Sequence record: EF517047.1
Strand: one strand, 5' to 3'
DNA: 541 bases
From: a phage
Shown here: positions 1 through 541 of the stretch, in pieces
Position numbering within the stretch: the stretch's first letter is position 1
How the letters are laid out: each line of letters begins with the position of its first letter
The notes under the pieces: model-generated
Databases searched by the model: none
Seen by the model: only the letters and a program-made list of their open reading frames with translations
Told to the model about the DNA's origin: nothing
Translations under genes and position numbers: made by a program

Positions 1-1
1 T

Positions 2-292
2 ACTGTGGAGGCAGGACGAGATGAGATGGCTGTAGGCTCTCACGCTAAGGGTTACAACCACAACTCTATCGGCGTCTGCCTTGTTGGTGGTATCAACGAT
101 AAAGGTAAGTTCGACGCTAACTTTACGCCAGCCCAAATGCAATCCCTTCGCTCACTGCTTGTCACACTGCTGGCTAAGTACGAAGGCGCTGTGCTTCGCG
201 CCCATCATGAGATAGCGCCGAAGGCTTGCCCTTCGTTCGACCTTAAGCGTTGGTGGGAGAAGAACGAACTGGTCACTTCTGATCGTGGATAA
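2..292 (+). CDS. 3.5: T7-type lysozyme / N-acetylmuramoyl-L-alanine amidase (gp3.5), 5'-partial; C-terminal ~96 codons plus TAA stop
   Basis: Frame beginning at position 2 translates as TVEAGRDEMAVGSHAKGYNHNSIGVCLVGGINDKGKFDANFTPAQMQSLRSLLVTLLAKYEGAVLRAHHEIAPKACPSFDLKRWWEKNELVTSDRG*, which I recognise as the C-terminus of T7 lysozyme. The ORF track's 5..292 ORF is the same frame; its GTG at 5-7 is an internal Val codon, not the true start, and the frame is open to the window edge. From memory of the T7 protein there are two conservative differences (GGIDDKG to GGINDKG, HEVAPK to HEIAPK). The AHHEIAPKAC segment contains the His and Cys residues I recall as zinc ligands and the Lys needed for amidase activity. 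Confidence 0.95.
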   Translation, partial: TVEAGRDEMAVGSHAKGYNHNSIGVCLVGGINDKGKFDANFTPAQMQSLRSLLVTLLAKYEGAVLRAHHEIAPKACPSFDLKRWWEKNELVTSDRG

Positions 293-293
293 T

Positions 294-316
294 TAATTGA
301 ACTCACTAAAGGGAGA
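294..316 (+). promoter_or_regulatory. phi3.8: T7 RNA polymerase class II promoter, phi3.8-like (-17 to +6); predicted +1 at G311
   Basis: TAATTGAACTCACTAAAGGGAGA at 294-316 aligns to the T7 promoter consensus TAATACGACTCACTATAGGGAGA. The core CTCACTA and the GGGAGA initiation region are intact, with mismatches at -13, -12, -11 and -2. It matches my recollection of the native T7 phi3.8 promoter. The 45-nt spacing from +1 (311) to the downstream ATG (356) is the same as I recall for T7 phi3.8 and gene 3.8. Confidence 0.9.
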
Positions 317-331
317 CCACAGCGGTTTCCC
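311..331 (+). other. RNA stem-loop at the 5' end of the phi3.8 transcript (8-bp stem, 5-nt loop); possibly part of an RNase III R3.8-type processing structure
   Basis: GGGAGACC (311-318) pairs with GGTTTCCC (324-331): 311-331 G-C, 312-330 G-C, 313-329 G-C, 314-328 A-U, 315-327 G-U wobble, 316-326 A-U, 317-325 C-G, 318-324 C-G. Loop is ACAGC (319-323). I paired this by hand; no energy was computed. From memory, T7 has an RNase III site (R3.8) between phi3.8 and gene 3.8. Confidence 0.5.
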
Positions 332-344
332 TTTGTTCGCATTG

Positions 345-349
345 AAGGT
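345..349 (+). promoter_or_regulatory. Shine-Dalgarno sequence for gene 3.8
   Basis: AAGGU at 345-349 (within GAAGGT 344-349) is complementary to the 16S rRNA 3' end and sits 6 nt upstream of ATG 356-358. Confidence 0.65.
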
Positions 350-355
350 CAAATA

Positions 356-541
356 ATGCGCAAGTCTTATAAACAATTCTATAAGGCTCCGAGAAGGCAT
401 ATCCAAGTGTGAAAGGCAGCCAATGGACCTATACCAAAAGGTTATTATATAGACCACATTGACGGCAATTCACTCAACGACGCCTTAGACAATCTCCATC
501 TGGCTCTCCCAAAAGAAAACTCATGGAACATGAAGACTCCA
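356..541 (+). pseudogene. 3.8: Gene 3.8 homologue (HNH endonuclease-like), 3'-partial, interrupted by an in-frame TGA at codon 19 (410-412); may be inactivated or depend on UGA readthrough
   Basis: ATG at 356 with SD, then MRKSYKQFYKAPRRHIQV, TGA at 410-412, then in the same frame with no further stop KAANGPIPKGYYIDHIDGNSLNDALDNLHLALPKENSWNMKTP to position 541. The downstream part carries the HNH-type motif (DHIDGN...N...NL...N). As I recall it, T7 gp3.8 reads HIQVWEAANGPIPKGYYIDHIDGNPLNDALDNLRLALPKENSWN, so TGA replaces a Trp codon (TGG) and the next codon is AAG where T7 has GAG. The ORF track lists nothing here because of the stop. Confidence 0.7.

Follow-up and report, generated by a model that had tools for sequence, protein, structure and literature searches.

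Layout of the locus and the interrupted gene 3.8

The window, by which we mean the whole stretch of 541 nt analyzed here, matches T7 10870-11410 over its full length without gaps and at 98.0% identity, and no record in the phage collection is nearer to it than T7. It covers the 3' part of the lysozyme gene, the phi3.8 promoter and the first 62 of the 121 codons of gene 3.8, counted from ATG 356 (Table 1). Gene 3.8 is collinear with its position in T7, behind gene 3.5 and phi3.8 and before gene 4. It occupies the same site and uses the same start codon as T7 gene 3.8 (NP_041974), a homing-endonuclease-like gene of the HNH_3 family (PF13392), and is identical to it at 180 of 186 bases. Unlike in T7, a stop at codon 19 interrupts its open reading frame, its Shine-Dalgarno sequence is weaker, and the substitutions E20K, P39S and R48H are present.

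The phi3.8 promoter is identical to that of T7, with zero differences between 284 and 344, and its start site, annotated at T7 11180, corresponds to window position 311. The lysozyme frame stays open, while three changes alter codons 87 and 126; two of them (212 and 214) fall within the single codon 126. Both residues, D87 and V126, are invariant across six natural relatives, whereas the window has D87N and V126I.

Table 1. Features of the window and its differences from T7 (window coordinates)
Feature	Position	Strand	Details
Gene 3.5 (lysozyme/amidase), 3' part, codons 56-151 and stop	1..292	+	T7 alignment/annotation; frame open
Changes within gene 3.5		+	G>A 95 (D87N); G>A 212 and 214 (V126I); C>T 283 (synonymous)
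phi3.8, T7 class II promoter, TAATTGAACTCACTAAAGGGAGA	294..316	+	NC_001604 annotation
Gene 3.8 Shine-Dalgarno	344..348	+	T7 GGAGG to window GAAGG (G>A 345)
Gene 3.8, part still open: 18 codons, then TGA 410-412 (W19*)	356..412	+	synonymous G>A 394 within
TGA AAG, for TGG GAG in T7	410..415	+	tandem G>A 412 and 413 inside a GGG run; 5' G at both
Gene 3.8 codons 20-62, now untranslated, with the HNH_3 core	413..541	+	E20K (413); synonymous (427); P39S (470); R48H (498)
Changes from T7, positions 95 to 394			95 D87N; 212 and 214 V126I; 283 synonymous; 345 intergenic; 394 synonymous
Changes from T7, positions 412 to 498			412 W19*; 413 E20K; 427 synonymous; 470 P39S; 498 R48H

The codons GTG TGA AAG lie at 407-415 in frame with ATG 356, and the frame is otherwise open until the end of the window, with the translation MRKSYKQFYKAPRRHIQV before the stop and KAANGPIPKGYYIDHIDGNSLNDALDNLHLALPKENSWNMKTP after it. 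The sequence bears out the original observation of an in-frame TGA in an otherwise open and homologous frame. Wild-type T7 gene 3.8 (NC_001604 11225-11590) reads GTG TGG GAG at codons 18-20, and codon 19 is TGG in T7, Escherichia phage NC-A and Yersinia phage Y. The alignment to T7 and these relatives, which had been named beforehand as a check, found the window alleles to be derived, and it confirms the proposal that TGG GAG is ancestral and that two adjacent G-to-A changes (412 and 413) produced W19* and E20K.

We searched 5.8 billion proteins and aligned T7 gp3.8 with 22 of its homologues. Of these 23 sequences, 21 have Trp at position 19, and the remaining two have Leu and Tyr; the Trp at this position, which had been described as conserved, is highly conserved but not invariant. 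None of the 23 has a stop at position 19, all of them having a sense codon there. A start codon farther downstream, which would make codon 19 non-coding, was also looked for among the aligned homologues and none was seen.

The only recognisable domain of gp3.8 is Pfam HNH_3 (aa 14-56), which agrees with the earlier assignment of the gene as an HNH-endonuclease homologue, and the stop falls within this domain. With W put back at position 19, the window translation reaches 51.7 bits over aa 14-56 (cut-off 24.8), and T7 gp3.8 scores 56 bits. A search of PDB sequences with gp3.8 yielded nothing beyond spurious matches to a designed kelch-like repeat protein and to Fab chains, which we left aside. 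H15, D33, H34, N46 and N58 are kept in the window frame, while W19 is replaced by the stop and R48 by His. R48 occupies a nearly invariant column, being at least 90% conserved among the aligned homologues, and P39S lies within the HNH core.

Translation from ATG 356 would end after 18 residues, ahead of the HNH catalytic core, and with TGA at codon 19 the window lacks an intact reading frame over the whole core. There is no in-frame restart codon (ATG, GTG or TTG) between the stop and Met59 (530), and a restart at Met59 could not yield an active enzyme because this residue lies past the invariant D33, H34 and N46 of the core. Judged from its sequence, gene 3.8 of the window is a pseudogene of the HNH_3 endonuclease family. 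The predicted pairing of the Shine-Dalgarno sequence with the 3' tail of 16S rRNA changes from -10.5 kcal/mol with GGAGG of T7 to -4.4 kcal/mol with GAAGG of the window, and the change at 345 is thus a second, independent hit on the expression of gene 3.8.

A one-directional set of differences from T7

The window differs from T7 at 11 positions in 541 nt (2.0%). Read on the + strand, nine of these are G>A and the other two C>T. No indels or transversions relative to T7 were found in the window, and all bases outside the 11 transitions are identical to laboratory T7 throughout. At every one of the 11 sites the same base is shared by T7, Escherichia phage NC-A and Yersinia phage Y, which makes all 11 window alleles derived. 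The stop had been presented as a stand-alone event. It is real, but it is not isolated, as 412 and 413 are only two of the 11 changes, all of which are G:C>A:T. Natural divergence over the same stretch looks different: NC-A and phage Y differ from T7 at 18 and 23 positions, respectively, with a mixed spectrum in which GC>AT changes account for only 33-39%. At these shares, the chance that 11 of 11 changes would be GC>AT is 6e-6 to 3e-5.

The changes also have a preferred sequence context. When read on the strand bearing the G, the mutated G is preceded by a 5' G in eight of 11 cases, as compared to 67 of 269 G:C sites (25%) in the region (P=9e-4). For 5' purines as a class P is 0.14, with 5' A in none of the 11, in what is a small sample; this speaks against MNNG as the agent, which is said to favour both purines. 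Two pairs of changes, 212/214 and 412/413, are no more than 2 nt apart, which is mildly unusual (P about 0.05); the tandem 412/413 falls in a GGG run with both G in the favoured context. The contexts expected of cytosine deaminases (APOBEC- or DddA-like) are not enriched, TC being found in 5/11 (P=0.115) and CC, with the 3' C deaminated, in 2/11 (P=0.81).

The changes are biased 9:2 toward G on the coding strand (P=0.03). The coding strand is the one that is not transcribed, and its excess of G>A may stem from transcription-coupled repair or from an asymmetry of alkylation damage between the replication strands.

Gene 3.8 carries six changes in 186 nt and the lysozyme gene four in 292 nt, a difference in density which is not significant (P=0.20). 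A higher density in gene 3.8 was considered as a sign of relaxed selection and dropped on these counts. Since the mutational load extends beyond gene 3.8 and the two densities do not differ significantly, we do not claim selection for the stop, merely a lack of selection against it.

Exact scans of viral, metagenome and genome contig collections did not find the 32-mer spanning the stop. Three other derived alleles were likewise absent from the same collections, while a scan with the wild-type 32-mer, used as a positive control, did recover T7-type contigs. The partial lysozyme product of the window has no exact match in the gene index.

Possible origins of the stop codon

A spectrum made up only of G:C>A:T changes at G after a purine is the behaviour of agents that alkylate the O6 position of guanine. 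We regard it as probable that the window represents a T7 lineage after intense G:C>A:T mutagenesis, in which the stop passively inactivated a gene that the phage can do without. As the cause, repeated treatment with an alkylating agent of the MNNG or EMS type is most likely, during laboratory evolution or a mutagenesis experiment. The analysis shows which region this is, the 11 changes and their direction, the context bias, where in the domain the stop falls and that the gene is dispensable, while we infer the agent, an origin in the laboratory and that the stop was not selected for. Earlier, a genuine inactivating mutation in a dispensable and possibly host-toxic endonuclease had been listed as one option. 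The inactivation of a dispensable gene stands, while selection against a toxic endonuclease is not needed to account for it, given the one-directional signature across the whole window.

Published work on T7 provides parallels. GC>AT changes dominate in T7 after mutagenesis with nitrosoguanidine or hydroxylamine, and in high nitrosoguanidine T7 acquires about four viable mutations per genome per infection (PMC6042481). The T7 nitrosoguanidine experiment has been cited as increasing the mutational load by two orders of magnitude (PMC8923235), and T7 has also been passed repeatedly through 180 mM EMS (PMC7438504). O6-methylguanine lesions and mutations induced by MNNG prefer G with a 5' purine, both in cells and in naked DNA (PMC11381349), a context which the window changes share through their 5' G. 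Like the window, both the MNNG-mutagenised T7 of Springman et al. 2010, which PMC6042481 and PMC8923235 cite, and the EMS-cycled T7 (PMC7438504) combine a T7 backbone with many mutations per genome, dominated by GC>AT.

The density of changes in the window is close to the neutral expectation for four mutations per generation over 200 generations (lambda 10.8). The MNNG line of T7 described by Springman et al. in 2010 (Genetics 184:221) reportedly carried a mean of 245 mutations per genome. At 11 changes per 541 nt (2%), the window is locally denser than this mean load (P=7e-4), which speaks against the alkylation reading. The window haplotype could also be a consensus of polymorphic variants.

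The events leading to the pseudogene were probably as follows. O6-alkylguanine pairs with T at replication, which converts G into A, preferably at a G that follows a purine. In gene 3.8, the third base of the TGG at codon 19 lies in this context, and its change would give TGA, upon which translation would halt after 18 residues, ahead of the HNH catalytic core, and no active endonuclease would be made. The mutation would not have been purged by selection because gene 3.8 is dispensable for T7 growth, and the gene is probably decaying passively, with a weakened ribosome-binding site and three further missense changes.

A stop codon in this gene is not a surprising outcome of such treatment. There are 16 sites in gene 3.8 where one GC>AT change creates a stop, and five of these 16 are the third base of TGG, by construction a G after G. 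With the per-site rates measured in the window, at least one stop is expected with a probability of 0.49-0.55 over the whole gene, and of 0.22-0.27 within its first 62 codons. The mutational load of the window thus fully explains a stop in gene 3.8.

Among the alternatives, a sequencing, assembly or DNA-damage artefact is unlikely. Cytosine deamination of the template, or a mosaic contig of low-frequency variants, could have produced a haplotype that exists in no real genome; the window is short (541 nt), no deposited genome matches it, and deamination damage would likewise give only GC>AT changes. However, deamination is not expected to favour C before C, which is the same as G after G, and this is at odds with the 5' G bias (P=9e-4), and the deaminase contexts are not enriched (P=0.115 for TC and 0.81 for CC). 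Eleven false calls in a consensus of 541 nt would also demand extreme damage, while ordinary sequencing error would give indels and transversions, of which there are none here.

Trace readthrough of the UGA, as had been suggested, is plausible as biochemistry, but it is very unlikely that the phage makes use of the TGA as a leaky opal codon. Low-level readthrough of UGA by tRNA-Trp is established in E. coli, and tRNA-Trp could read UGA-A at a low level, restoring Trp19 and giving a small functional amount of full-length gp3.8, so that a possibly toxic nuclease would be attenuated. The frame after the stop is open until the window end, and the translation with W19 restored still scores well above the HNH_3 cut-off. 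Such a function is hard to reconcile with the lack of the stop in any relative, since a sense codon is found in 23 of 23 homologues and W in 21 of them. The weakened Shine-Dalgarno sequence would lower output further, the product would carry both R48H in its nearly invariant column and P39S in the HNH core, and the mutational load alone explains the stop. Programmed UGA recoding, either readthrough or selenocysteine, shares with the window an in-frame UGA followed by an open homologous frame; the window differs from it in that its stop is conserved in no relative and a robust downstream structure lacks support.

The structure in question is a predicted RNA stem of 409-413 with 469-473. Here, G412A together with C470T would replace a G-C pair by A-U, and with G413A a G.U pair likewise becomes A-U. 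The stem has z = -2.1, but in T7 its pair probability varies between 0 and 0.98 with the flanks used. The same kind of "compensatory" pair arises in 99 of 600 random sets of GC>AT mutations (16.5%). We rejected G412A/C470T as a compensatory change of the stem on the grounds that it is expected by chance at this frequency and that the stem is not robust in T7; for leaky readthrough, a context-dependent stem with a compensatory change at chance level counts against the idea.

Natural or enzymatic hypermutation, in which a DNA deaminase of host or phage, or some comparable defence activity, edited a wild T7-like phage, has a very low probability as well. Cytosine deaminases acting on single strands also make one-directional GC>AT changes with a strand bias such as the 9:2 seen here. 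Against this, the backbone is that of laboratory T7 outside the changed sites, while 18 and 23 differences of mixed type separate T7 from its nearest natural relatives; the 5'-TC and 5'-CC contexts are unenriched, and the tested alleles occur in no environmental contig. We give only slight credence to a related view, that the GC>AT hypermutation is enzymatic editing of T7 during infection, for example by a bacterial defence deaminating or alkylating phage DNA, with the opal codon as collateral damage, or, in a weaker version, that the UGA was kept as trace readthrough titrates a harmful nuclease. An engineered knockout of gene 3.8 via an introduced stop, another of the options listed earlier, is extremely improbable: gene 3.8 is often engineered in T7, being replaced by inserts (PMC6042481) or deleted in genome-reduced clones, but nine further unselected, random-looking transitions lie elsewhere in the window, three of them hitting codons 87 and 126 of the lysozyme gene, a designed stop would usually be TAA or a series of stops rather than a lone TGA with an adjacent missense change, and the allele is found in no deposited engineered T7.

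Gene 3.8 as a dispensable gene

Gene 3.8 is non-essential, and a T7 strain has been described in which it is largely replaced by another gene (PMC6042481). Many deposited "mutant T7 clone" genomes align to the window only as far as position 384. One of these viable clones, MZ375241 ("clone T7_50L"), lacks T7 11254-11542 and hence most of gene 3.8, what is left of the gene being joined to gene 4. The "primase/helicase" CDS of MZ375241 is annotated from the gene 3.8 ATG, the site concerned being 982-984 of the compared MZ375241 locus, and the same deletion of T7 11254-11542 recurs in many deposited mutant T7 clones. The MZ375 records presumably stem from the CiPGr genome-reduction work; the main text of the CiPGr paper names neither gene 3.8 nor the MZ375 accessions, and the main text of the PhageMaP essentiality preprint does not mention gene 3.8.

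Natural phages also do without this gene. A gene 3.8 homologue is missing between the lysozyme and primase/helicase (gene 4) genes of T3, Yersinia phage WX1 and Klebsiella phage GP-2. In T3 the site is taken by a small gene 3.7, with the phi3.8 promoter and gene 4 coming right after it. Homing-endonuclease-like genes typically show a patchy distribution, and gene 3.8 fits this pattern. Two gp3.8 variants in public assemblies (P0013 and P0017) have frameshifted C-terminal parts and are truncated, their gene calls beginning at the GTG of codon 18. These cases point to disruption of gene 3.8 in further T7-like genomes. The T7 clones of the MZ375241 type and T3 resemble the window in that gp3.8 is lost while lysozyme and primase/helicase are kept. 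The routes are different, however: the T7 clones lost the gene by deletion and T3 never had it, whereas the window keeps the DNA and shows inactivation by point mutation.

In the window, a known process has turned a known gene into a pseudogene. When a laboratory phage is heavily mutagenised, nonsense mutations in its dispensable genes are to be expected; the present one has little biological weight, and W19* tells us nothing new about HNH endonucleases or stop-codon decoding. For annotation, the appropriate label for the window is a mutagenised T7 derivative carrying a gene 3.8 pseudogene. The more general lesson is that a stop codon which looks isolated should first be viewed together with every difference that separates the sequence from its nearest relative, and only then be given a mechanism.
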